From: Escherichia coli
Lineage (GTDB): Bacteria > Pseudomonadota > Gammaproteobacteria > Enterobacterales > Enterobacteriaceae
DNA: 64,000 nt
Strand: one strand, 5' to 3'
NCBI RefSeq assembly: GCF_024502345.1
Contig: NZ_JALDNN010000001.1
The stretch's first letter is position 1. Every line of letters starts with the position of its first letter. The notes under the pieces were generated by a model. The model ran no database searches, had not been told where the DNA came from, and worked only from the letters and a program-made list of their open reading frames with translations. The translations under genes were made by a program, and so were the position numbers. This document shows positions 17,301 through 56,477 of the stretch, in pieces.

Positions 17301-17849
17301 ATAGCGGGAAATCATACTGCTGGTAATGATGTTACTACCAATAAAGTAATCATTCTGTCCGGCTGAGACGGATGCTAATGCCTGATATAAATTTGTAAAA
17401 GAGATAATTGTTGCTTTTGGAAATGATTGATGAATTACCTCGTCAGGGGGATAATTTGCTACTCGAGCAATATTTACTGGTTTTGATGAGGTAAGCGGTC
17501 GCATTGAATCGTGAAGGGTGGTGACCAGCGCCGGAAAGGTAATTATCAGTGGTTTGGTTGCAGCAATGTCATCATTAAGAGGCGGCGAAGCAACTAAATG
17601 TGATAACACTATATCGACTTCACCTTCTTCCAGCGCGTCCATTGCTTTTTGATGATCGGCGTATTCCCGGAGTGTTAATTTGATATTTAACGCTCTTTTT
17701 AAAAGATTTAAATAGTCAGCATTAATACCACGAACCCGTTGCTGCGAATCGGTATGCAACAACGTAGCCGTTTGGGACTTATGTACTGCAATCACAAGAT
17801 TTTTTTTGCTCGCTAACCAACGTAATTCCTTGTTGCTCAGACGTAGTGG
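14376..17849 (-). pseudogene. evgS: evgS hybrid sensor kinase, 5'-truncated (about 40 N-terminal codons and promoter lost) at the IS903-like element
   Basis: Reading frame translates …PLRLSNKELRWLASKKNLVIAVHKSQ… right up to the IS inverted repeat at 17850; no start codon or native upstream sequence remains. Confidence 0.85.
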
Positions 17850-18906
17850 GGCTTTGTTGAATAAATCAGATTTCGGGTAAGTCTCCCCCGTAGCGGGTTG
17901 TGTTTTCAGGCAATACGCACGCTTTCAGGCATACCTGCTTTCGTCATTTTGTTCAGCGCTCGTACCAGGGCCATAGCCTCTGCAACCTGACCATCGTAGT
18001 CACGCAGTGTCAGTGAACCCCCGAACAGCTGTTTTACCCGGTACATCGCCGTTTCCGCTATCGAGCGACGGTTGTAATCTGTTGTCCATTTCCACCGCGC
18101 ATTACTCCCGGTCATTCGCTGATTAGCCACTGCACGGTTACGGTCTGCATATTCACCGGGCCAGTAACCCGCACCTTTTCGGGGAGGGATAAGCGCGCTG
18201 ATTTTCTTACGCCGCAGTTCATCGTGACATAGCCGGGTATCGTAAGCGCCATCGGCGGCGGCTGACCTGATTTTCCGGTGGGTTTGCCGGATTAACCCGG
18301 GGAAGGCCTCTGAGTCCGTAACGTTGTTCAGCGACAGGTCAGCGCAGATGATTTCATGTGTTTTACTGTCAACGGCGAGATGCAGCTTACGCCAGATACG
18401 GCGGCGTTCCTGGCCATGCTTTTTGACTTTCCACTCGCCTTCACCGAAGACCTTCAGCCCGGTGGAATCAATTACCAGGTGTGCGATTTCACCCCGGGTG
18501 GGCGTTTTGAAACTGACATTAACCGACTTTGCCCGCCTGCTGACACAGCTGTAATCCGGGCAGCGTAGCGGAACGTTCATCAGAGAAAAAATGGAATCAA
18601 TAAAGCCCTGCGCAGCGCGCAGGGTCAGCCTGAATACGCGTTTAATGACCAGCACAGTCGTGATGGCAAGGTCAGAATAGCGCTGAGGTCTGCCTCGTGA
18701 AGAAGGTGTTGCTGACTCATACCAGGCCTGAATAGCTTCATCATCCAGCCAGAAAGTTATGGAGCCACGGTTGATGAGGGCTTTATTGTAGGTGGGCCAG
18801 TTGGTGATTTTGAACTTTTGCTTTGCCACGGAACGGTCTGCGTTGTCGGGAAGATACGTGATCTGATCCTTCAACTCAGCAAAAGTTCGATTTATTCAAC
18901 AAAGCC
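17850..18906 (-). mobile_element. IS903-like insertion sequence (IS5 family), 1057 bp
   Basis: 18 bp terminal inverted repeats GGCTTTGTTGAATAAATC (17850-17867) and its reverse complement (18889-18906) flank a single transposase ORF; the 9 bp flanks differ (acgtagtgg vs cggtcaaaa). Confidence 0.8.
17906..18874 (-). CDS. IS903-group (IS5 family) DDE transposase
   Basis: 322 aa ORF, C-terminal two-thirds recalled as near-identical to IS903 transposase (…NRRSIAETAMYRVKQLFGG…); true start may be slightly internal. Confidence 0.85.
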   Translation of the reverse strand: MKDQITYLPDNADRSVAKQKFKITNWPTYNKALINRGSITFWLDDEAIQAWYESATPSSRGRPQRYSDLAITTVLVIKRVFRLTLRAAQGFIDSIFSLMNVPLRCPDYSCVSRRAKSVNVSFKTPTRGEIAHLVIDSTGLKVFGEGEWKVKKHGQERRRIWRKLHLAVDSKTHEIICADLSLNNVTDSEAFPGLIRQTHRKIRSAAADGAYDTRLCHDELRRKKISALIPPRKGAGYWPGEYADRNRAVANQRMTGSNARWKWTTDYNRRSIAETAMYRVKQLFGGSLTLRDYDGQVAEAMALVRALNKMTKAGMPESVRIA

Positions 18907-48241: not shown

Positions 48242-48727
48242 ATGCAAGTTTTTATCATGCGTCACGGCGACGCAGCCCTCGATGCCGCCAGTGATTCGGT
48301 TCGTCCTCTTACCACTAATGGTTGTGACGAATCTCGCCTGATGGCGAACTGGCTGAAAGGTCAAAAAGTGGAAATCGAACGCGTTCTGGTGAGCCCGTTC
48401 CTGCGAGCCGAGCAAACACTGGAGGAAGTAGGGGATTGTCTGAACCTGCCTTCCAGTGCAGAAGTTCTGCCGGAGTTAACGCCCTGCGGCGATGTTGGTC
48501 TGGTCAGTGCCTATTTGCAGGCGTTGACCAATGAAGGTGTTGCTTCGGTGTTGGTTATCTCCCACTTACCGTTAGTTGGGTATCTGGTCGCCGAGTTATG
48601 TCCGGGCGAAACGCCGCCTATGTTTACCACCTCGGCCATTGCCAGCGTCACGCTTGATGAAAGCGGAAACGGCACATTCAACTGGCAGATGAGCCCGTGT
48701 AATTTGAAGATGGCGAAAGCTATCTGA
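48242..48727 (+). CDS. sixA: Phosphohistidine phosphatase SixA
   Basis: 161 aa ORF with the RHG motif (IMRHGDA). Confidence 0.9.
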   Translation: MQVFIMRHGDAALDAASDSVRPLTTNGCDESRLMANWLKGQKVEIERVLVSPFLRAEQTLEEVGDCLNLPSSAEVLPELTPCGDVGLVSAYLQALTNEGVASVLVISHLPLVGYLVAELCPGETPPMFTTSAIASVTLDESGNGTFNWQMSPCNLKMAKAI

Positions 48728-48740
48728 TTTGTTTGAAAAA

Positions 48741-48779
48741 ATGCCCGATGTAAGCTGTACATCGGGCATTTGTCTTTTT
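48741..48779 (+). terminator. Rho-independent terminator after sixA
   Basis: atgcccgatgta…tacatcgggcat hairpin followed by a T-tract. Confidence 0.55.
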
Positions 48780-49370
48780 GCAATAGTATAAATTCACTAA
48801 AAACCCTTCACGGAGTTGGTATGCTGCGATGATGATTTCATCGCACTCTTTCCTCTGCTTCCCTATTAATTTCTGATGAAATGAGACTAAGTTGTAATAT
48901 ATTCTTACAAATTATAAAGCTAATGGAACAATTAACAGTAAAAAAGAAATGATATTTTTGTGTCTTGATTTAATATTGTTTGTGATGCTTTAATATTATA
49001 TCTTCAAAAAATACAATTTCAAAATTAATCTAAGATCGTCTTTTTTGTATACACTTCCCATAAATTTTAATTATGTAAAAGATGTTTTCTAAGCATTTTA
49101 TTTGTTTTTTATAAGTAAACTCTCAAAATTTCACCTTTTTGATAATATGTTAAGTGCTCCTTAATTCACTGTTAAGTAAATATAATTTGAAACAATAAAG
49201 ACAAAATATCACCATCCGCCCACACCAAAGAATATCTTCTTATGCGACCTATTTTCTTGTTAGTTAGATCGGATAGCTTATTCAATGGCTGGGTATAAAT
49301 AATTGCTATTGACTGAATCAATGTATTGCAATGTTTATATTTTTAATTATTTATGGTTTAAGGACAAATA

Positions 49371-49934
49371 ATGAGTAAGTTTGTAAAAACAGCTATTGCT
49401 GCAACAATGGTAATGGGTGCGTTCGCTTCTACTTCAACAATCGCCGCTGGCAACAACGGTACAGCTCGTTTTTACGGCACCATTGAAGATTCCCCGTGCT
49501 CCATCGTTCCTGATGATCACAAACTGGAAGTGGATATGGGTGACATTGGTTCAGGGATCCTGAAAAACAACGGGACTTCTACACCGAAAGCTTTCCAGAT
49601 CCATCTGCAGGACTGTGTGTTTGACACCCAGACAACGATGACCACTACCTTCACGGGTAACGCGTCTTCTACCAACAGCGGCAATTACTACACCATTTAC
49701 AATACCGATACCGGTGCGGCATTTAACAATGTCAGCCTGGCCATTGGTGACGCTCAGGGGACCTCTTACAAAAGCGGCGCGGGTATCGACCAGAAAATCG
49801 TAAAAGATACGGCGACCAACAAAGGCAAAGCGAAGCAGACGCTGGACTTTAAAGCCTGGCTGGTGGGCGCTGCTGATGCGCCAGATTTAGGTAATTTTGA
49901 AGCCAACACGACCTTCCAGATTACTTATCTCTAA
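49371..49934 (+). CDS. yfcV: Fimbrial major subunit-like protein YfcV
   Basis: 187 aa ORF with signal peptide and pilin-like C-terminal strand; first gene of a chaperone-usher operon. Confidence 0.8.
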   Translation: MSKFVKTAIAATMVMGAFASTSTIAAGNNGTARFYGTIEDSPCSIVPDDHKLEVDMGDIGSGILKNNGTSTPKAFQIHLQDCVFDTQTTMTTTFTGNASSTNSGNYYTIYNTDTGAAFNNVSLAIGDAQGTSYKSGAGIDQKIVKDTATNKGKAKQTLDFKAWLVGAADAPDLGNFEANTTFQITYL

Positions 49935-50003
49935 GTGATACCCCCATAGCTTTCGGGCTATGGGGTTTTTAAATGGAATTCGCGCAAATTATAATAATTA
50001 CGG

Positions 50004-52655
50004 ATGGATACGTGTATGCCTGACCATTCTCTTTTCCGACTGCGGGTGCTTCCCTGCTGCATTGCGCTGGCAATGTCAGGGTGTTATGTCAATGCCTGGG
50101 TTGAAGATGAAATTCAGTTTGATTCCCGTTTTCTGGAGTTAAAAGGCGACACAAAAATCGATCTGAAGCGATTTTCCAGCCAGGGATATGTCGAACCTGG
50201 TAAATACAATTTACAGGTTCAACTAAATAAACAGCCGCTGGCGGAAGAATACGATATTTACTGGTACGCCTCTGAGAACGATGCCAGTAAAACCTATGCC
50301 TGCCTGACGCCTGAACTGGTCGCGCAGTTTGGCTTAAAAGAGGATGTGGCAAAAAACCTGCAATGGATCCACGACGGCAAATGCCTGAAACCCGGTCAAC
50401 TGGAAGGCATTGATATTAAAGCTGACCTGAGTCAGTCAGCGTTAGTCATTTCATTACCCCAGGCTTACCTTGAATATACCGACATCAACTGGGATCCACC
50501 TTCACGCTGGGATGACGGTATTTCTGGTTTAATTGCTGACTACAGTATTACCGCCCAGACACGACATGAAGAAAATGGCGGGGATGACAGCAATGAAATC
50601 AGCGGCAACGGAACAGTTGGGGTTAACCTCGGCGCATGGCGTCTGCGAGCCGACTGGCAGACTGACTACCAGCACAGCAAAAGCAATGATGACGATGTTA
50701 TCAACGGTGATGACACGCAAAAAAACTGGGAGTGGAGCCGCTACTACGCCTGGCGGGCCTTACCGTCGCTAAAAGCCAAACTTGGCCTTGGCGAAGACTA
50801 CCTTAATTCTGATATTTTCGACGGCTTTAACTACGTGGGTGGCAGTATCAGCACCGACGATCAAATGTTGCCGCCGAATCTGCGCGGCTATGCGCCGGAT
50901 ATCTCCGGCGTGGCGCACACCACCGCGAAAGTGACCGTCAGCCAGATGGGCCGCGTGATTTACGAAACGCAGGTTCCGGCGGGGCCGTTCCGCATCCAGG
51001 ATCTTGGCGATTCTGTCTCCGGTACACTGCACATCCGCATTGAAGAACAGAACGGCCAGGTGCAGGAATATGACATCAACACCGCCTCGATGCCGTTCCT
51101 GACCCGCCCCGGCCAGGTGCGCTATAAGCTGATGATGGGCCGCCCGCAGGAGTGGGGGCATCATGTTGAGGGCGGTTTCTTCTCCGGCGGCGAAGCTTCA
51201 TGGGGGATTGCCAACGGCTGGTCGCTGTACGGCGGGGCGCTGGCAGATGAACACTATCAGTCGGCGGCGCTTGGCGTCGGTCGCGACCTGTCTGTCTTTG
51301 GCGCAGTCGCCTTTGATATCACCCACTCGCATACCCGCCTGGATAAAGAGACCGCCTACGGTAAAGGTTCACTGGACGGTAACTCGTTTCGCGTGAGCTA
51401 TTCCAAAGACTTCGATGAACTGAACAGCCGCGTCACTTTTGCCGGATACCGCTTCTCGGAAGAGAACTTCATGACCATGAGCGAGTATCTCGATGCCAGC
51501 GACAGCGAAATGGTGCGCACCGGCAACGACAAAGAGATGTACACCGCCACCTATAACCAGAACTTCAGGGATGCCGGTGTGTCTGTTTATCTCAACTACA
51601 CCCGCCATACCTACTGGGATCGCGACGAACAGACCAACTACAACGTCATGCTCTCGCACTACTTCAACCTGGGCAGTATCCGCAATATGAGCATTTCCAT
51701 GACCGGATACCGCTACGAGTATGATAACCAGGCCGATAAAGGTGTGTACATATCGCTCAGTATGCCGTGGGGTGACAGCAGCACCATCAGCTATAACGGC
51801 AACTACGGCAGCGGTTCGGACAGCAGCCAGGTGGGGTATTTCAGCCGTGTCGATGACGCAACTCACTACCAGCTGAACGTGGGGACCAGTGACAAACACT
51901 CCAGCGTTGACGGCTATTACAGCCACGATGGCTCGCTGGCGCAGGTGGACCTCAGCGCCAACTACCATGAAGGACAGTACACCTCGGCAGGTATTTCCTT
52001 ACAGGGCGGCGCGACGCTGACCGCGCAGGGTGGCGCGCTCCACCGTACCCAGAATATGGGCGGTACGCGCCTGCTGATTGATGCCGATGGCGTGGCTGGT
52101 GTTCCGGTGGAAGGAAATGGCGCGGCGGTTTACACCAATATGTTCGGTAAGACCGTGGTGGCAGACGTCAACAACTACTACCGCAATCAGGCCTATATCG
52201 ACCTTAACAACCTGCCGGAAAACGCCGAAGCCACCCAGTCCGTGGTGCAGGCGACGCTTACCGAAGGAGCCATTGGCTACCGTAAGTTTTCGGTTATCAG
52301 CGGGCAAAAAGCGATGGCGGTATTGCGCCTGCAAGATGGCAGTCATCCGCCGTTTGGCGCGGAAGTGAAAAATGACAACGCGCAGAACGTCGGTCTGGTT
52401 GATGATGACGGCAACGTCTACCTCGCGGGTGTCAAACCTGGCGAGCATATGATCGTTTCATGGGGCGGTGTGGCCCACTGTGATATTCATCTGCCGGACC
52501 CACTGCCAGCCGATCTGTTCAATGGCCTGTTACTACCATGTCAACAAACAGGGGCGATATCTCCTTCGATGCCTCATCAAATTAAGCCGGTGATCCAGGA
52601 GCAGACCCAGCAGGTGATGCCAACGGAAGCGCCGGTATCGGTATCCGCCAATTAA
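50004..52655 (+). CDS. yfcU: Fimbrial outer membrane usher, intact (YfcU-type)
   Basis: 883 aa uninterrupted ORF with usher-family features; alternative start at MPDHS… 15 nt downstream. Confidence 0.8.
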   Translation: MDTCMPDHSLFRLRVLPCCIALAMSGCYVNAWVEDEIQFDSRFLELKGDTKIDLKRFSSQGYVEPGKYNLQVQLNKQPLAEEYDIYWYASENDASKTYACLTPELVAQFGLKEDVAKNLQWIHDGKCLKPGQLEGIDIKADLSQSALVISLPQAYLEYTDINWDPPSRWDDGISGLIADYSITAQTRHEENGGDDSNEISGNGTVGVNLGAWRLRADWQTDYQHSKSNDDDVINGDDTQKNWEWSRYYAWRALPSLKAKLGLGEDYLNSDIFDGFNYVGGSISTDDQMLPPNLRGYAPDISGVAHTTAKVTVSQMGRVIYETQVPAGPFRIQDLGDSVSGTLHIRIEEQNGQVQEYDINTASMPFLTRPGQVRYKLMMGRPQEWGHHVEGGFFSGGEASWGIANGWSLYGGALADEHYQSAALGVGRDLSVFGAVAFDITHSHTRLDKETAYGKGSLDGNSFRVSYSKDFDELNSRVTFAGYRFSEENFMTMSEYLDASDSEMVRTGNDKEMYTATYNQNFRDAGVSVYLNYTRHTYWDRDEQTNYNVMLSHYFNLGSIRNMSISMTGYRYEYDNQADKGVYISLSMPWGDSSTISYNGNYGSGSDSSQVGYFSRVDDATHYQLNVGTSDKHSSVDGYYSHDGSLAQVDLSANYHEGQYTSAGISLQGGATLTAQGGALHRTQNMGGTRLLIDADGVAGVPVEGNGAAVYTNMFGKTVVADVNNYYRNQAYIDLNNLPENAEATQSVVQATLTEGAIGYRKFSVISGQKAMAVLRLQDGSHPPFGAEVKNDNAQNVGLVDDDGNVYLAGVKPGEHMIVSWGGVAHCDIHLPDPLPADLFNGLLLPCQQTGAISPSMPHQIKPVIQEQTQQVMPTEAPVSVSAN

Positions 52656-52677
52656 CAACGTGATTAAGGAATGATCC

Positions 52678-53436
52678 ATGACGAATCTATTTTGCTCTGC
52701 CAGAACGGCCGCAACGACGCTGGCGTTACTGATAACTGCCGCCAGCCTGTCAGCACAGGCCTCTGTCACGCCGGACCGTACACGCCTGATTTTTAACGAA
52801 AGTGATAAATCAATCAGCGTCACGCTGCGCAATAACGACCCGAAAATGCCGTATCTGGCACAAAGCTGGATGGAAGATGAACAGGGTAACAAGATTAGCT
52901 CGCCACTGACGGTACTGCCGCCGGTGCAGCGCATCGATTCCATGATGAACGGTCAGGTGAAGGTACAGGGCATGCCGGATATCAACAAGCTGCCTGCCGA
53001 CCGCGAGAGCGTGTTCTATTTCAACGTGCGTGAGATCCCGCCGAAATCGAACAAACCCAACACGTTACAGATTGCGCTGCAAACGCGCATCAAGCTGTTC
53101 TGGCGACCAAAGGCGCTGGAAAACGTCAGCATGAAAAATCCGTGGCAGCATAAGGTGACCTTAACCCGCAGCGGCCAGGAGTTTACAGTCAATAACCCGA
53201 CGCCGTACTTCGTGGTTATCAGTAACGCCAGTGCGCAGAAAAATGGTAATCCGGCAGCGGGATTTTCCCCGCTGGTGATATCGCCAAAAACCTCCGTACC
53301 GTTAAAGGTCAAAATGGATAGCGTCCCGGTGCTGACCTACGTCAACGACTATGGCGCGCGGATGCCGCTGTTCTTCACCTGTACGGGAAACACCTGCCAG
53401 GTGGATGAAAAGCAAAACAGCCAGGGCCAGGGATAG
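52678..53436 (+). CDS. yfcS: Fimbrial periplasmic chaperone YfcS
   Basis: 252 aa PapD-like chaperone. Confidence 0.8.
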   Translation: MTNLFCSARTAATTLALLITAASLSAQASVTPDRTRLIFNESDKSISVTLRNNDPKMPYLAQSWMEDEQGNKISSPLTVLPPVQRIDSMMNGQVKVQGMPDINKLPADRESVFYFNVREIPPKSNKPNTLQIALQTRIKLFWRPKALENVSMKNPWQHKVTLTRSGQEFTVNNPTPYFVVISNASAQKNGNPAAGFSPLVISPKTSVPLKVKMDSVPVLTYVNDYGARMPLFFTCTGNTCQVDEKQNSQGQG

Positions 53437-53446
53437 GAGCACTAAT

Positions 53447-53947
53447 ATGAAAGGATCTTATTCGGCTTGGGTGTGGTTATTGCTATGTAGTATTGTGAGC
53501 ACGCCTGTAATGGCGGGTAGCAAATCGGTTGCGATGGTCTTGCGGGTGCTCGTTGATGCCCCGCCGCCCTGTACGGTAACTGGTGCGAGCGTGGAGTTCG
53601 GTAATGTATTTATTTCTAAGATCGATGGGGTAAGTTACAAACGCCCCATTGACTACTCGCTTGTGTGCAACAATCTGGCAATGGACGACCTGCGCTTAAA
53701 TATGCAGGCAACTACAACCGTGATTAACGGAGAAACGGTAATCGATACGGGTATTGCCGGTTTTGGAATTCGGATTCAAAAAGCCAGCGATCACTCCATT
53801 CTGGATTTAACGCCTGGCACATGGTTACCGTTTAACTTTTCATCGGGCGCACCGGCACTGGAAGCGGTTCCTGTCGTGCAGAGCGGTGTAACTCTAACGG
53901 CGGCGGAATTTAGCGCCAGTGCCACTATTGTGGTGGATTATCAATGA
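53447..53947 (+). CDS. yfcR: Fimbrial subunit-like protein YfcR
   Basis: Start placed at the internal MKGSYSAWVWLLL… with signal peptide; the ORF-track start at 53351 overlaps yfcS. Confidence 0.7.
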   Translation: MKGSYSAWVWLLLCSIVSTPVMAGSKSVAMVLRVLVDAPPPCTVTGASVEFGNVFISKIDGVSYKRPIDYSLVCNNLAMDDLRLNMQATTTVINGETVIDTGIAGFGIRIQKASDHSILDLTPGTWLPFNFSSGAPALEAVPVVQSGVTLTAAEFSASATIVVDYQ

Positions 53948-54414
53948 AACGGATTTCTCTCTTAATGTTGTGGGGCATTAGCTCTATGGCGCTCTCGAAT
54001 ATTTCTTTTCATGGTTATTTAGTGCAGCCACCGAATTGCACAATTAGTAATGGAGAAAATATAGAGTTGACGTTTCGGGACGTGAATATTGATGACATTA
54101 ACGGCAGCAATTATGAGCAGTTTGTGCCATATGCCATTACCTGTGATACCACTGTTCGTGACCCTCAAATGGAAATGACATTGACCTGGAGTGGCACACA
54201 GAGTGACTTTGATGATGCGGCTGTAACCACCGATATCAATGGATTAGCAATACATCTTAAACAAGCCGGAAGCGATTTTAAGCTGAATACCCCCTTAGTG
54301 GTGAATGAAACAGCCCTTCCTGTGATAACAGCCGTTCCCGTAAAAAAGAGTGGTGTCGATTTACCAGAGGCGGACTTTGAGGCGTGGGCTACGCTACAGG
54401 TGGATTACCAATGA
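53944..54414 (+). CDS. yfcQ: Fimbrial subunit-like protein YfcQ
   Basis: 156 aa ORF with signal peptide; C-terminal …VDYQ shared with YfcR. Confidence 0.7.
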   Translation: MKRISLLMLWGISSMALSNISFHGYLVQPPNCTISNGENIELTFRDVNIDDINGSNYEQFVPYAITCDTTVRDPQMEMTLTWSGTQSDFDDAAVTTDINGLAIHLKQAGSDFKLNTPLVVNETALPVITAVPVKKSGVDLPEADFEAWATLQVDYQ

Positions 54415-54932
54415 AGAAAAACAGTGTGTTGGTGCTTATTTGTAGTCTGCTGTTATTTAGTGGGATAGTCTCCGCTGCCGATAATCTGCATTTTACCGGT
54501 AATTTGTTTGGGAAATCCTGTACTCCTGTAATCAATGGCAACTTACTTGCGGAAATCCATTTCCCCACAATTGCGGCCAGCGATTTAATGCTACGTGGTC
54601 AGTCAGAGCGTGTGCCATTAGTCTTTCAGTTGAAAGATTGCAAAAGTGCCACGGCGTTTAATGTCAAGGTGACCTTGACGGGGACAGAAGACACCGACTT
54701 ACCTGGATTTCTGTCGATTGATTCATCATCTTCTGCAACGGGTGTTGGGATTGGCATTGAAACTGCCGGAGGGGCGGCTGTACCTATTAACAGCAACACA
54801 GGTGCCACATTCCCGTTAAATCAGGGAAATAACAGTGTCAATTTTAATACGTGGTTACAGGCCGTAAATGGACGAGATGTTACGTCCGGAGATTTCACCG
54901 CCACGATGACGGTAACTTTTGAGTATTTTTGA
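54411..54932 (+). CDS. yfcP: Fimbrial subunit-like protein YfcP
   Basis: Start placed at the internal MKKNSVLVLICSLLLFS… signal peptide. Confidence 0.7.
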   Translation: MKKNSVLVLICSLLLFSGIVSAADNLHFTGNLFGKSCTPVINGNLLAEIHFPTIAASDLMLRGQSERVPLVFQLKDCKSATAFNVKVTLTGTEDTDLPGFLSIDSSSSATGVGIGIETAGGAAVPINSNTGATFPLNQGNNSVNFNTWLQAVNGRDVTSGDFTATMTVTFEYF

Positions 54933-55777
54933 ATATGAAAAAATGGACATTTTTTTTAGCGGCGCTTCTGTTACTTATAGTAAATGTGGGAACATCAAAG
55001 AGCTATGCTGGTAGTAAGCTCATGAGTTCAACTTTTAAAAGTACTGAGATTTATTATGGGATGAATAGAATATCGCCTGTGGGTGATTTGTTTTTTTATG
55101 TCACGGTGCTGACACCAGGAGAGGTAAGTTATGGTCAATATAATTCGGACGCTCGGCGTGGCGACATACTCCCGGTGATTTCCTGGACCGGTTCCGGGCC
55201 TGCACCACAGTTGAAATTGACCGACTATGGTCGGACTGATACCTCGAATTGTCCAGGTATAAATACGAAGAATTTTTACTGTGCATATATGACGTTTGAT
55301 GTCACTGTCGAGTCTGATAATTATGGTTGCCCATGGCAGGCGTCATTTTATTCAGTTTCAGAACAGGTAGGATTTGGTGTTTATACCAGTCCAACGGTAC
55401 ATGATTCCGCTTGCCCCACGATTCCGGTTGCTTCTTTTGATATATCATGGAGTGAGAATTACGTTAGCCATAATAAAGCGTTGCGGTTGCAATCCGATGG
55501 TTCGACTATCACGACTACGCTTTCGACCTACCTGATGGAAAGCGGCAAACTCTGTGATGGCAGTGTTTTTGATTCCAGAGGGGCATATTGTCGTGCTGTT
55601 TCGGACTTATTAACCTTTACCTCGTATGGTTGTGATAATGCAAAGGTGACAGTCACCCCCTCACGTCAACCGGTGACGGACAAAAAGCTACACGACATTG
55701 TGGTACAGGTGAATACCAGTAGCCGTGCGCCAATTGATTCTACATGCCGTTTCCAGTATGTACTGAATGAACTATAG
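54929..55777 (+). CDS. yfcO: Putative fimbrial tip adhesin-like protein YfcO
   Basis: 282 aa ORF with signal peptide; last gene of the operon. Confidence 0.65.
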   Translation: MNMKKWTFFLAALLLLIVNVGTSKSYAGSKLMSSTFKSTEIYYGMNRISPVGDLFFYVTVLTPGEVSYGQYNSDARRGDILPVISWTGSGPAPQLKLTDYGRTDTSNCPGINTKNFYCAYMTFDVTVESDNYGCPWQASFYSVSEQVGFGVYTSPTVHDSACPTIPVASFDISWSENYVSHNKALRLQSDGSTITTTLSTYLMESGKLCDGSVFDSRGAYCRAVSDLLTFTSYGCDNAKVTVTPSRQPVTDKKLHDIVVQVNTSSRAPIDSTCRFQYVLNEL

Positions 55778-55786
55778 TTGTGCGCT

Positions 55787-55891
55787 GATGCCTGATGCGA
55801 CGTGAACGTCTTATCAGGCCTACAATTGAATCACAATCTATTGAATTTGCACACTTTGTAGGCCGGATAAGGCGTTCACGCCGCATCCGGC
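55787..55891. repeat. REP/BIME palindromic elements
   Basis: gcctgatgcgacg…cttatcaggcctac and gtaggccggataaggcgttcacgccgcatccggca between convergent yfcO and smrB. Confidence 0.6.
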
Positions 55892-55925
55892 ATTCGGTGC
55901 CAGTGCCACATCCGGCACTTAATAT

Positions 55926-56477
55926 TCACGGCAATTCCGGCGGCAGCCACTCTTCCACTTCAATCAACACCAGCAACGCCGCATCACCACCGTACTCTTT
56001 CGGCGCCTGGTGAAATGCCATCACATGTGGATGTTGCGCCAGCCACAGCGGCGTTTGCTGTTTCAAAATATGCTTACCATGCCCATGCATCACACAGGCA
56101 CAAAACACATGTTCACGGCGGCAGGCGGCAATCAACGCCCCCAGTTCCTGCTTGGCCTGTAGCTGCGTCAGACCGTGTAAATCCAAAAACAATTCCGGCG
56201 AATAATCACCGCGTCGCAACTTCTTCGCTTCAAAATGACTCACATCCGGGCGGACATATTTCACTGGGCCTTCGGTATTCAGTAACGGCTGAAACTCATC
56301 TGAGAAATAATGGCTGGCATCAGCCTGCTCCTGGATCAAGCGTTTCACCGGCACTTCGCTGATTTTCTTACGCTGCGGTCGGTGGACAATTGTGTCCTGC
56401 TTAATCTTGCGAGTCCCCGCCATCAACTGGCGAAACAGAGCCTGGTCCTCCTCGCTAAGTGTTGTTTTCTTTTTCAT
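55926..56477 (-). CDS. smrB: Ribosome rescue factor SmrB (Smr domain)
   Basis: 183 aa ORF recognised as SmrB/YfcN. Confidence 0.85.

Follow-up and report, generated by a model that had tools for sequence, protein, structure and literature searches.

A complete seven-gene yfc/stf-family chaperone-usher operon at the sixA-smrB locus of Escherichia coli, related to the O157 locus 10/epo allele class

Results

Gene content of the sixA-smrB locus

The stretch of E. coli DNA analysed here, referred to as the window, comprises 64,000 nucleotides of contig NZ_JALDNN010000001.1 (assembly GCF_024502345.1). Seven consecutive intact open reading frames were found on its + strand at 49371-55777, flanked by sixA and smrB (yfcN). 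The features of the region are the following:

48728-49370, + strand: AT-rich sixA-yfcV spacer and leader, 643 bp, 27.7% GC
48739-48771, + strand: intrinsic terminator of sixA, 14-bp perfect stem with T-run; left edge of the divergent segment
49371-49934, + strand: yfcV-type major fimbrial subunit, 187 aa; Pfam Fimbrial, 7e-17; top NCBIfam match StfA
49942-49965, + strand: stem-loop and T-run directly downstream of the yfcV-type gene; candidate hairpin for attenuation or mRNA stabilisation
50016-52655, + strand: intact outer-membrane usher, 879 aa; frame extends to an ATG at 50004; PapC_N, Usher and PapC_C domains
52678-53436, + strand: periplasmic PapD-like chaperone, 252 aa; PapD_N and PapD_C domains
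53447-53947, + strand: yfcR/StfE-like minor subunit, 166 aa (Pfam, NCBIfam)
53944-54414, + strand: yfcQ/StfF-like minor subunit, 156 aa (Pfam, NCBIfam)
54411-54932, + strand: yfcP/StfG-like minor subunit, 173 aa (Pfam, NCBIfam)
54935-55777, + strand: YfcO/StfH-family putative tip adhesin, 280 aa; DUF2544 (PF11245), 2.3e-73
55787-55917, no strand assigned: REP/BIME-type repeat cluster in the yfcO-smrB interval; right edge of the divergent segment

The gene order V-U-S-R-Q-P-O agrees with that of the annotated operons of K-12, O157, NU14 and others. For all seven products the expected Pfam domains passed the gathering cut-off, and signal-peptide-like N-termini and full domain sets were present across the seven genes. 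Usher and chaperone, the latter with both of its domains (PF00345 and PF02753), are adjoined by four pilin-fold PF00419 proteins of the YfcV, R, Q and P types. A reading of this DNA made earlier from the sequence alone had described the operon as complete, and this was borne out.

The best named NCBIfam match of the window proteins was the corresponding Stf protein. For the terminal YfcO-type protein no NCBIfam model was found at E <= 0.01; its counterpart in strain C 236-04A is named 'StfH/YfcO family fimbrial adhesin' in RefSeq, and its AF2 model consisted of two beta-sandwich domains (pLDDT 87). Downstream of yfcO, when positions 55787-55907 served as the query, E. coli genomes returned a median of 35 matches each, at 80-87% identity. 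The only Rfam hits in the region were to the REP-derived naRNA4 family; they reached 55917 and scored below the gathering threshold.

PapC aligned with usher residues 34-843 at 738.6 bits, FimD at 261 bits. Likewise, the chaperone scored 200 bits (3.9e-58) with PapD as compared to 88-91 bits with FimC. From the grouping of the usher with PapC by bit score and from the pi-type label given to the epo cluster in the E. coli W paper, the operon is placed in the Pap-like pi-clade of Nuccio and Baumler.

The usher and the lesion in K-12 yfcU

Counted from its first ATG, the usher frame runs uninterrupted from 50004 to 52655 and encodes 883 residues, as claimed previously. The ATG at 50016 (MPDHS..., 879 aa) is, however, the start common to K-12, O157, NU14 and a PGAP-annotated strain with a 100% identical usher gene. 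Within this single 879-aa frame the domains PF13954, PF00577 and PF13953 all lay above cut-off, and the usher reached 1864.5 bits with the StfC/YfcU subfamily model NF011812 (cut-off 972).

The K-12 counterpart had been described as a pseudogene, and yfcU of MG1655 is indeed annotated as such (b4661). Alignment with the window usher located the lesion: frame 0 of K-12 yfcU contains a single internal stop, TAG (amber) at codon 579, and all indels between the two genes are in-frame gaps of 3 nt. A single TAC-to-TAG change, giving an amber codon, therefore makes K-12 yfcU a pseudogene. At the same site the window usher has TAC (Tyr, 51747-51749), with neither frameshift nor stop along the gene. 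The deer isolate LF4-1, which carries a K-12-type allele, also has TAC at this site and an intact usher of 881 aa.

Of 5426 complete genomes of E. coli, 5385 had a near-full-length usher at the locus. The exact context of the K-12 amber codon occurred in 363 records, and almost all of the 30 matches listed were K-12-derived laboratory strains. In some genomes the usher is interrupted by IS insertions (H8; H146). Wurpel 2013 classified yfc as a core-associated cluster, intact in 36 of 36 genomes. An intact usher is thus the norm in E. coli and the broken K-12 usher the exception, so that the contrast implied earlier, where an intact usher appeared noteworthy against K-12, was misleading.

Allele class and divergence

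At about 48750 the identity to K-12 dropped from 98-99% to about 40%, and the divergent segment ended as sharply at about 55950. Within it, yfcV, usher and chaperone genes shared 82-85% of their nucleotides with K-12 (usher 84%), as compared to 96-98% in the flanks and the near-identity of about 97-99% of core genes. On the protein level identity to K-12 was 89.8% for YfcV, 47% for YfcR, 50% for YfcQ, 55% for YfcP and 44% for YfcO. The label yfcV-yfcO given to the operon in the sequence-only reading consequently holds for position and family; the allele is not that of K-12, given an usher at 84% and four distal products at 44-55%.

Kinship was much closer to O157. All seven genes have the same length as in the O157 allele, and yfcV, usher and chaperone were 95-98% identical on the nucleotide level (usher 96%). 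Further downstream values fell below the 95% taken to delimit the class, with 94% for yfcR, 89% for yfcQ, 90% for yfcP and 83% for yfcO. The corresponding protein identities were 98.9% for YfcV, 98-99% for the usher, 96% for YfcR, 89% for YfcQ, 88% for YfcP and 82.5% for YfcO. In the latter, the N-terminal domain was 77% and the C-terminal domain 96% identical. Across the 5,426 genomes just 40 records were at least 95% identical to the distal half of the operon.

By these comparisons the operon appears to belong to the class of O157:H7 "fimbrial locus 10" (ECs3216-3222) and E. coli W "epo", with a rarer tip module. Since identity exceeds 95% in yfcV, usher and chaperone and is lower in yfcR, yfcQ, yfcP and yfcO, it would be a sub-variant or a mosaic within that class. 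Ogura 2007 and the paper on E. coli W also describe the locus 10/epo allele class at sixA-smrB; the high polymorphism of yfc and the O157/W allele are already known from published work.

Synonymous divergence (dS) between the alleles was 0.79-1.06 in yfcV, usher and chaperone versus 0.06-0.11 in fadJ and sixA, that is 10-18 times that of the flanks. In all seven genes dN/dS was 0.04-0.20. A dS of about 1 at such low dN/dS indicates that the alleles are of old age and under constraint rather than in decay. The earlier proposal that the operon is potentially functional is likewise favored by the intactness of its genes and by strong purifying selection.

Leader region and hairpin

The AT-rich non-coding leader of about 590 bp described from the sequence was confirmed: the part of the spacer from 48780 to 49370 is 591 bp long with 26.9% GC. 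The lowest-GC 500-bp stretch of the whole window (24.2%, window mean 47.9%) falls in the sixA-yfcV spacer. A consensus scan returned 19 sigma-70-like sites in the leader versus 11.3 +/- 3.4 expected; they clustered around 48958-49020 and none was decisive. The K-12 promoter hexamers (TTGAAA-17-TATAGT) had no conserved counterpart at 48958-48986, the window position aligned with them. Conserved blocks were found in the proximal leader at 49221-49234 and 49281-49299 and at the ribosome binding site (49357-49370), whereas the distal leader could not be aligned with that of K-12. The spacer held no open reading frame above 49 aa and none suggestive of a regulator, and no Rfam family was detected in the leader.

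The hairpin at 49942-49965 kept its position in all allele classes, and in the B2-type allele an A-T pair is replaced by C-G, a compensatory change. On the model of pap and fim, it may act as an attenuator or stabilise the mRNA.

Discussion

We are highly confident that the region is an intact yfc/stf-family, Pap-like chaperone-usher operon at sixA-smrB, of the O157 locus 10/epo class and carrying a rarer tip-module variant. In such a system transcription would begin somewhere within the AT-rich leader, where H-NS probably silences it under laboratory conditions. After Sec-dependent export, the PapD-like chaperone would bind the subunits by donor-strand complementation, and the PapC-like usher would polymerise them via donor-strand exchange. 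The putative YfcO-type adhesin, which may bind a receptor, would enter first and occupy the tip; the three minor subunits would come next, serving as adaptor or fibrillum, and the YfcV rod last. Through the conserved hairpin downstream of yfcV, the major subunit would probably be kept at a high ratio to the other components.

In two published data sets the K-12 spacer is marked as bound by H-NS, and it also bears a published RpoD-binding peak; K-12 yfc expression and H-NS are the subject of Korea et al. 2010, in so far as citing papers relate it. Because the distal leader does not align with that of K-12, the H-NS data transfer to the window by composition only. Carried over in this way, H-NS silencing of the predicted yfcV promoter is plausible. 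A dedicated phase switch instead of simple H-NS silencing, be it an invertible element like fimS or a Dam/Lrp GATC switch as in pap, comes to mind as usher and chaperone are Pap-like and the leader holds two GATC sites (49034 and 49267) and many short inverted repeats. The two sites are, however, 233 bp apart, unlike the roughly 100 bp that separate the GATC sites of pap. Only the proximal one is common to O157 and K-12, and the NU14 leader has no GATC. The inverted repeats were short and imperfect and at the level expected by chance at 27% GC, for which reason an invertible promoter element was rejected; the sole perfect long inverted repeat was the sixA terminator. Neither a papI/papB-like nor a recombinase gene was found in the spacer or the operon. 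We consider such a switch very unlikely and retain H-NS silencing as the plausible mode of control.

The distance to K-12 might be ascribed to rapid diversification, under selection, of an allele shared until recently instead of old classes exchanged by recombination, and divergence was indeed highest in the N-terminal domain of the adhesin and in the tip subunits, as expected for host-facing surface proteins. This is nevertheless unlikely: synonymous divergence is itself an order above that of the flanks, dN/dS does not exceed 0.2 (and is 0.08 when the N-domain of YfcO is compared to that of O157), the segment has sharp edges, and published Yfc gene trees conflict with MLST. The most improbable of the alternatives, in our estimation, is a silent relic, intact by chance, unused and on its way to a pseudogene cluster as in K-12. 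K-12 does tolerate an amber codon in its usher, other genomes the IS insertions mentioned above, and yfc-type fimbriae were called cryptic in laboratory culture (Wurpel 2013). Low dN/dS in seven of seven genes despite a dS of about 1 between classes, a near-full-length usher in almost all genomes and gene lengths unchanged from the O157 allele all argue against decay. Old, constrained allele classes remain our preferred reading. Since dS is about 1 as compared to 0.06-0.11 in the flanks, with purifying selection in every class, we tentatively propose that the classes predate the species E. coli. Balancing selection on receptor specificity might maintain them, and the rare tip module of the window might confer a distinct host or tissue tropism; this proposal is possible but more doubtful than not.

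Another aspect concerns the choice of reference. With its lineage-specific amber codon in the usher, K-12 is unrepresentative for the Yfc fimbria. In line with this lesion, fimbriae were reportedly not detectable when yfc expression was forced in E. coli (PMC5343171). Intact alleles like that of the window are better material than K-12 for visualising and characterising the fimbria. The name "yfc" lumps deeply diverged alleles. This affects presence/absence typing, as with the yfcV PCR that serves as a marker of UPEC or comparative genomic hybridisation (CGH), by which K-12 was scored as lacking O157 locus 10, and it also complicates the assignment of a single receptor to "Yfc fimbriae". The operon itself is an ordinary intact seven-gene pilus set carried by nearly every E. 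coli at sixA-smrB, and the finding is of little weight alone.

Comparison with known systems

Among solved structures, the usher and chaperone of the P (Pap) pili of uropathogenic E. coli come closest. Both operons follow one layout, with major subunit, usher, chaperone, minor subunits and a distal adhesin gene. The window operon differs in being devoid of papI/papB regulators; no PapH-like terminator subunit was identified in it, and the adhesin, a member of the DUF2544 family, is unrelated to PapG, to which similarity was not detectable.

Salmonella enterica stfACDEFGH represents the orthologous family, and the window usher scores above the cut-off of the subfamily model common to both. With the window proteins, however, every named Stf equivalog model stayed below its cut-off; these proteins are therefore family relatives and not equivalogs. 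StfH is the experimentally supported adhesin of Stf; its alleles differ in the N-terminal half, and host-cell binding depends on the allele (PMC5343171). Distinct host or tissue tropism was shown for StfH alleles of Salmonella Newport. The window YfcO mirrors this pattern of N-terminal variation, with its 77% identical N-domain and 96% identical C-domain when compared to O157.

The Yfc fimbriae of K-12 (yfcOPQRSUV) share locus, gene order, family, ribosome binding site and proximal leader with the window, but differ by the amber codon 579 in yfcU, divergent genes and the non-alignable distal leader. Nearest of all stand O157:H7 Sakai locus 10 (ECs3216-3222) and E. coli W epoA-H (eso), at the same position between sixA and yfcN/smrB and with seven genes of equal length; the O157 Sakai locus is set apart by its tip module, where YfcQ, YfcP and YfcO are 89%, 88% and 82.5% identical to those of the window.

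Results

Integrity of the operon and of its usher

The operon between sixA (48242-48727) and smrB (55926-56477, minus strand) consists of seven consecutive, intact + strand ORFs from 49371 to 55777, with fadJ further upstream and prmB and aroC downstream. All seven products showed the expected Pfam domains, each over the gathering score, so that the completeness claimed in the sequence-only reading held.

Features of the locus (all genes except the usher annotation-consistent)
48739-48771: sixA terminator
49371-49934, + strand: major subunit (yfcV type), Pfam Fimbrial
49942-49965: stem-loop with T-run, eight bases past the yfcV stop
50004-52655 (ORF from first ATG; likely start 50016), + strand: usher, Pfam PapC_N, Usher, PapC_C
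52678-53436, + strand: chaperone, Pfam PapD_N and PapD_C
53447-53947, + strand: minor subunit 1, Pfam Fimbrial
53944-54414, + strand: minor subunit 2, Pfam Fimbrial
54411-54932, + strand: minor subunit 3, Pfam Fimbrial
54935-55777, + strand: YfcO-type protein, Pfam DUF2544

As previously noted, one uninterrupted frame encodes the usher, but the 883 aa counted from its first ATG need correction. Since the usher starts of K-12 (MG1655), O157:H7, the UPEC strain NU14 and, as annotated by PGAP, strain C 236-04A all fall on the second ATG (50016, MPDHS...), with a conserved ACGGAT motif upstream, the product is likely 879 aa long.

In MG1655, yfcU is annotated as a pseudogene (b4661), as the sequence-only reading had stated. 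The gene has 2646 nt, a multiple of three, and exactly one internal stop in frame 0, a TAG at codon 579, where the window has TAC (Tyr, 51747-51749). Global alignment of the two genes showed only in-frame 3-nt gaps, plus the 12-nt difference in start choice, and neither frameshift nor stop in the window usher. The K-12 lesion is therefore a single nonsense mutation. The deer isolate LF4-1, which has a K-12-type allele, differs from K-12 yfcU at 27 of 2646 positions, among them nt 1737, G in K-12 and C in LF4-1, giving TAC and an intact 881-aa usher.

Of 5426 complete E. coli genomes searched with sensitive blastn, 5417 had the usher, with coverage of at least 80% in 5385. The 61-mer centred on the K-12 TAG had exact matches in 363 records; among 30 of these listed, almost all were MG1655, C600, J53 and other laboratory derivatives. 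Wurpel et al. (2013, PMC3559732) likewise described Yfc as a core-associated fimbria and yfc as the sole cluster intact in every genome examined. E. coli strains thus normally have an intact usher, and K-12, not the window strain, is the exception.

Allele class and its boundaries

The window usher matches that of E. coli O125ac:H10 strain C 236-04A at 100% identity, those of O157:H7 at 96%, the K-12 type at only about 84% and the B2/UPEC type at about 76-77%. In the same search of 5426 genomes, usher records fell into discrete classes of identity to the window: at least 99% (30 records), 95-99% (398), 80-90% (3115) and 60-80% (1920).

Amino acid identity of window proteins to K-12 and O157:H7 Sakai
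YfcV: 90% to K-12, 98.9% to O157
Usher: 91% to K-12, 98.4% to O157
Chaperone: 86.5% to K-12, 96.4% to O157
YfcR: 47% to K-12, 96.4% to O157
YfcQ: 50% to K-12, 89.1% to O157
YfcP: 55% to K-12, 87.9% to O157
YfcO: 44% to K-12, 82.5% to O157

Over the distal half (53447-55925), only 40 records from the 5,426 genomes were at least 95% identical to the window. YfcO was 77% identical to its O157 counterpart in the N-terminal and 96% in the C-terminal domain, and a protein search with it returned 90%-identity clusters, well over a hundred in number, at 41-82% identity; E. coli accounts for most of the named clusters and further Escherichia species for the bulk of the others. The yfcV-yfcO operon of the sequence-only reading is intact, but it is a variant of the O157/W allele class that carries a rare tip module, not a repaired K-12 yfc.

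BLAST against K-12 gave 97.8% identity in the fadI-fadJ-sixA flank up to 48750 and 96.4% from 55926 on; in the interior it gave 83% over 49164-53427 and almost no alignment beyond 53427. A 250-bp sliding comparison with five alleles had the same sharp edges, on the left at the sixA terminator and on the right in the 3' part of smrB. At 56004-56253, identity to K-12, O157 and other alleles dipped to 87-92%, against 96-100% in the remaining flank; from this dip, the recombination tract bounding the fimbrial alleles appears to extend into smrB.

Elsewhere in the window, a fadL-sized ORF is intact (42408-43754, minus strand, 448 aa; region 41390-43754) and a 406-aa ORF lies at 40823-42043; fadL of C 236-04A is broken by IS1 at the corresponding point. 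A tRNA-Arg(CCU) (38480-38554) adjoins an integrase-sized ORF (37161-38354, minus strand), and the prophage of C 236-04A at this site is unrelated to the window DNA upstream (1-37160). This upstream DNA includes an IS903 copy (17847-18906) and sucrose-utilisation (csc-type) genes (about 21.4-25 kb).

Non-coding elements

The AT-rich leader of about 590 bp described earlier starts at 48780, just after the sixA terminator, and measures 591 bp at 26.9% GC; the full sixA-yfcV spacer (48728-49370) is longer, 643 bp at 27.7% GC. Its composition is as described: it holds the lowest-GC 500-bp stretch of the 64-kb window (24.2%, window mean 47.9%). Within the leader, we found no ORF suggesting a regulator, no Rfam family and no convincing invertible-element repeats. 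Two GATC sites are present (49034 and 49267), the proximal one common to O157 and K-12; NU14 has none. Conservation across the allele classes covers the RBS and roughly the proximal 200 bp; distally, no alignment with K-12 is possible.

In K-12, genomic SELEX located a peak of RpoD holoenzyme (TTGAAA-17-TATAGT) in this spacer, together with an H-NS flag (PMC3946193), and the spacer is listed as an H-NS-interacting "promoter island" (PMC3661553). The window segment aligned to the K-12 promoter (48958-48986) has the hexamers TTGTGT and TGTGAT, with further promoter-like sites clustered nearby. From leader composition and analogy with K-12, H-NS silencing of the operon is plausible.

Although their sequences diverge by 15-40%, all five allele classes retain the hairpin after yfcV, and its stem shows a compensatory A-T to C-G change in the B2 allele (CCCCATAGC/GCTATGGGG to CCCCACAGC/GCTGTGGGG). 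Judging from pap and fim, the hairpin probably serves to attenuate read-through or to stabilise the message of the major subunit. A REP/BIME-type repeat cluster (55787-55917) separates yfcO and smrB; it has about 35 matching places per E. coli genome (median) at 80-87% identity, and sub-threshold matches to Rfam naRNA4 (REP-derived) on both strands.

Discussion

The polymorphism of yfc and the O157/W allele class are already documented, and the operon is annotated in RefSeq. ECs3216-3222 constitute fimbrial locus 10 of O157 Sakai, scored absent in K-12 by CGH (Ogura et al. 2007, PMC2323221). Archer et al. (2011, PMC3032704) described in E. coli W a pi-type seven-gene cluster in the sixA-yfcN interval, called epo (eso in a table), which shares over 95% identity with ECs3222-3216 and was contrasted with K-12 yfcOPQRSTUV. 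In Ren et al. (2016, PMC4850163), nucleotide diversity within the core fimbriae was highest for the Yfc and Yad genes, and trees of Yfc genes conflicted with MLST. In NU14 (L003, 5388-5951), the UPEC PCR marker yfcV has been annotated as a pseudogene, incomplete; in strain DE17, the gene of the same allele class is annotated as intact (567 nt).

Nei-Gojobori estimates between window and K-12 gave dS of 0.79-1.06 for yfcV, usher and chaperone and 0.06-0.11 for the flanking fadJ and sixA, with dN/dS of 0.04-0.20 throughout; hence the allele classes are old, and purifying selection acts on each. Both decay of the operon and a recent burst of positive selection are opposed by this combination of high dS and low dN/dS. 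Intact and constrained, the operon is probably functional, in line with the potential functionality proposed before. Tentatively, balancing selection on receptor specificity might maintain the deep allele classes, and the rare tip module might confer a distinct tropism, though we consider this rather unlikely.

Korea et al. (2010), in the part quoted in PMC5343171, reported that forced yfc expression in E. coli left fimbriae undetectable and made binding to T24 cells 10-fold better. The usher truncated by the K-12 amber codon would explain the undetectable fimbriae. For the gain in adhesion despite this codon, read-through or a borrowed usher are possibilities.

As to known systems, the usher scored 738 bits with PapC and 261 with FimD, and the chaperone 200 bits with PapD and 88-91 with FimC, which agrees with the published pi-clade assignment (PMC3032704). 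Judged by family membership, the operon most likely works by the standard chaperone-usher pathway and would build a Pap-like tip fibrillum. In NCBIfam, its proteins paired best with their own counterparts in Salmonella Stf (StfA, StfD, StfE, StfF, StfG); none reached the cut-off of an Stf equivalog model, and the usher passed the subfamily model NF011812, common with Stf (1864 bits, cut-off 972). For StfH, the Salmonella counterpart of YfcO, an adhesin role has experimental support; most differences between StfH alleles lie in the N-terminal half, and the alleles alter host-cell binding (PMC5343171).
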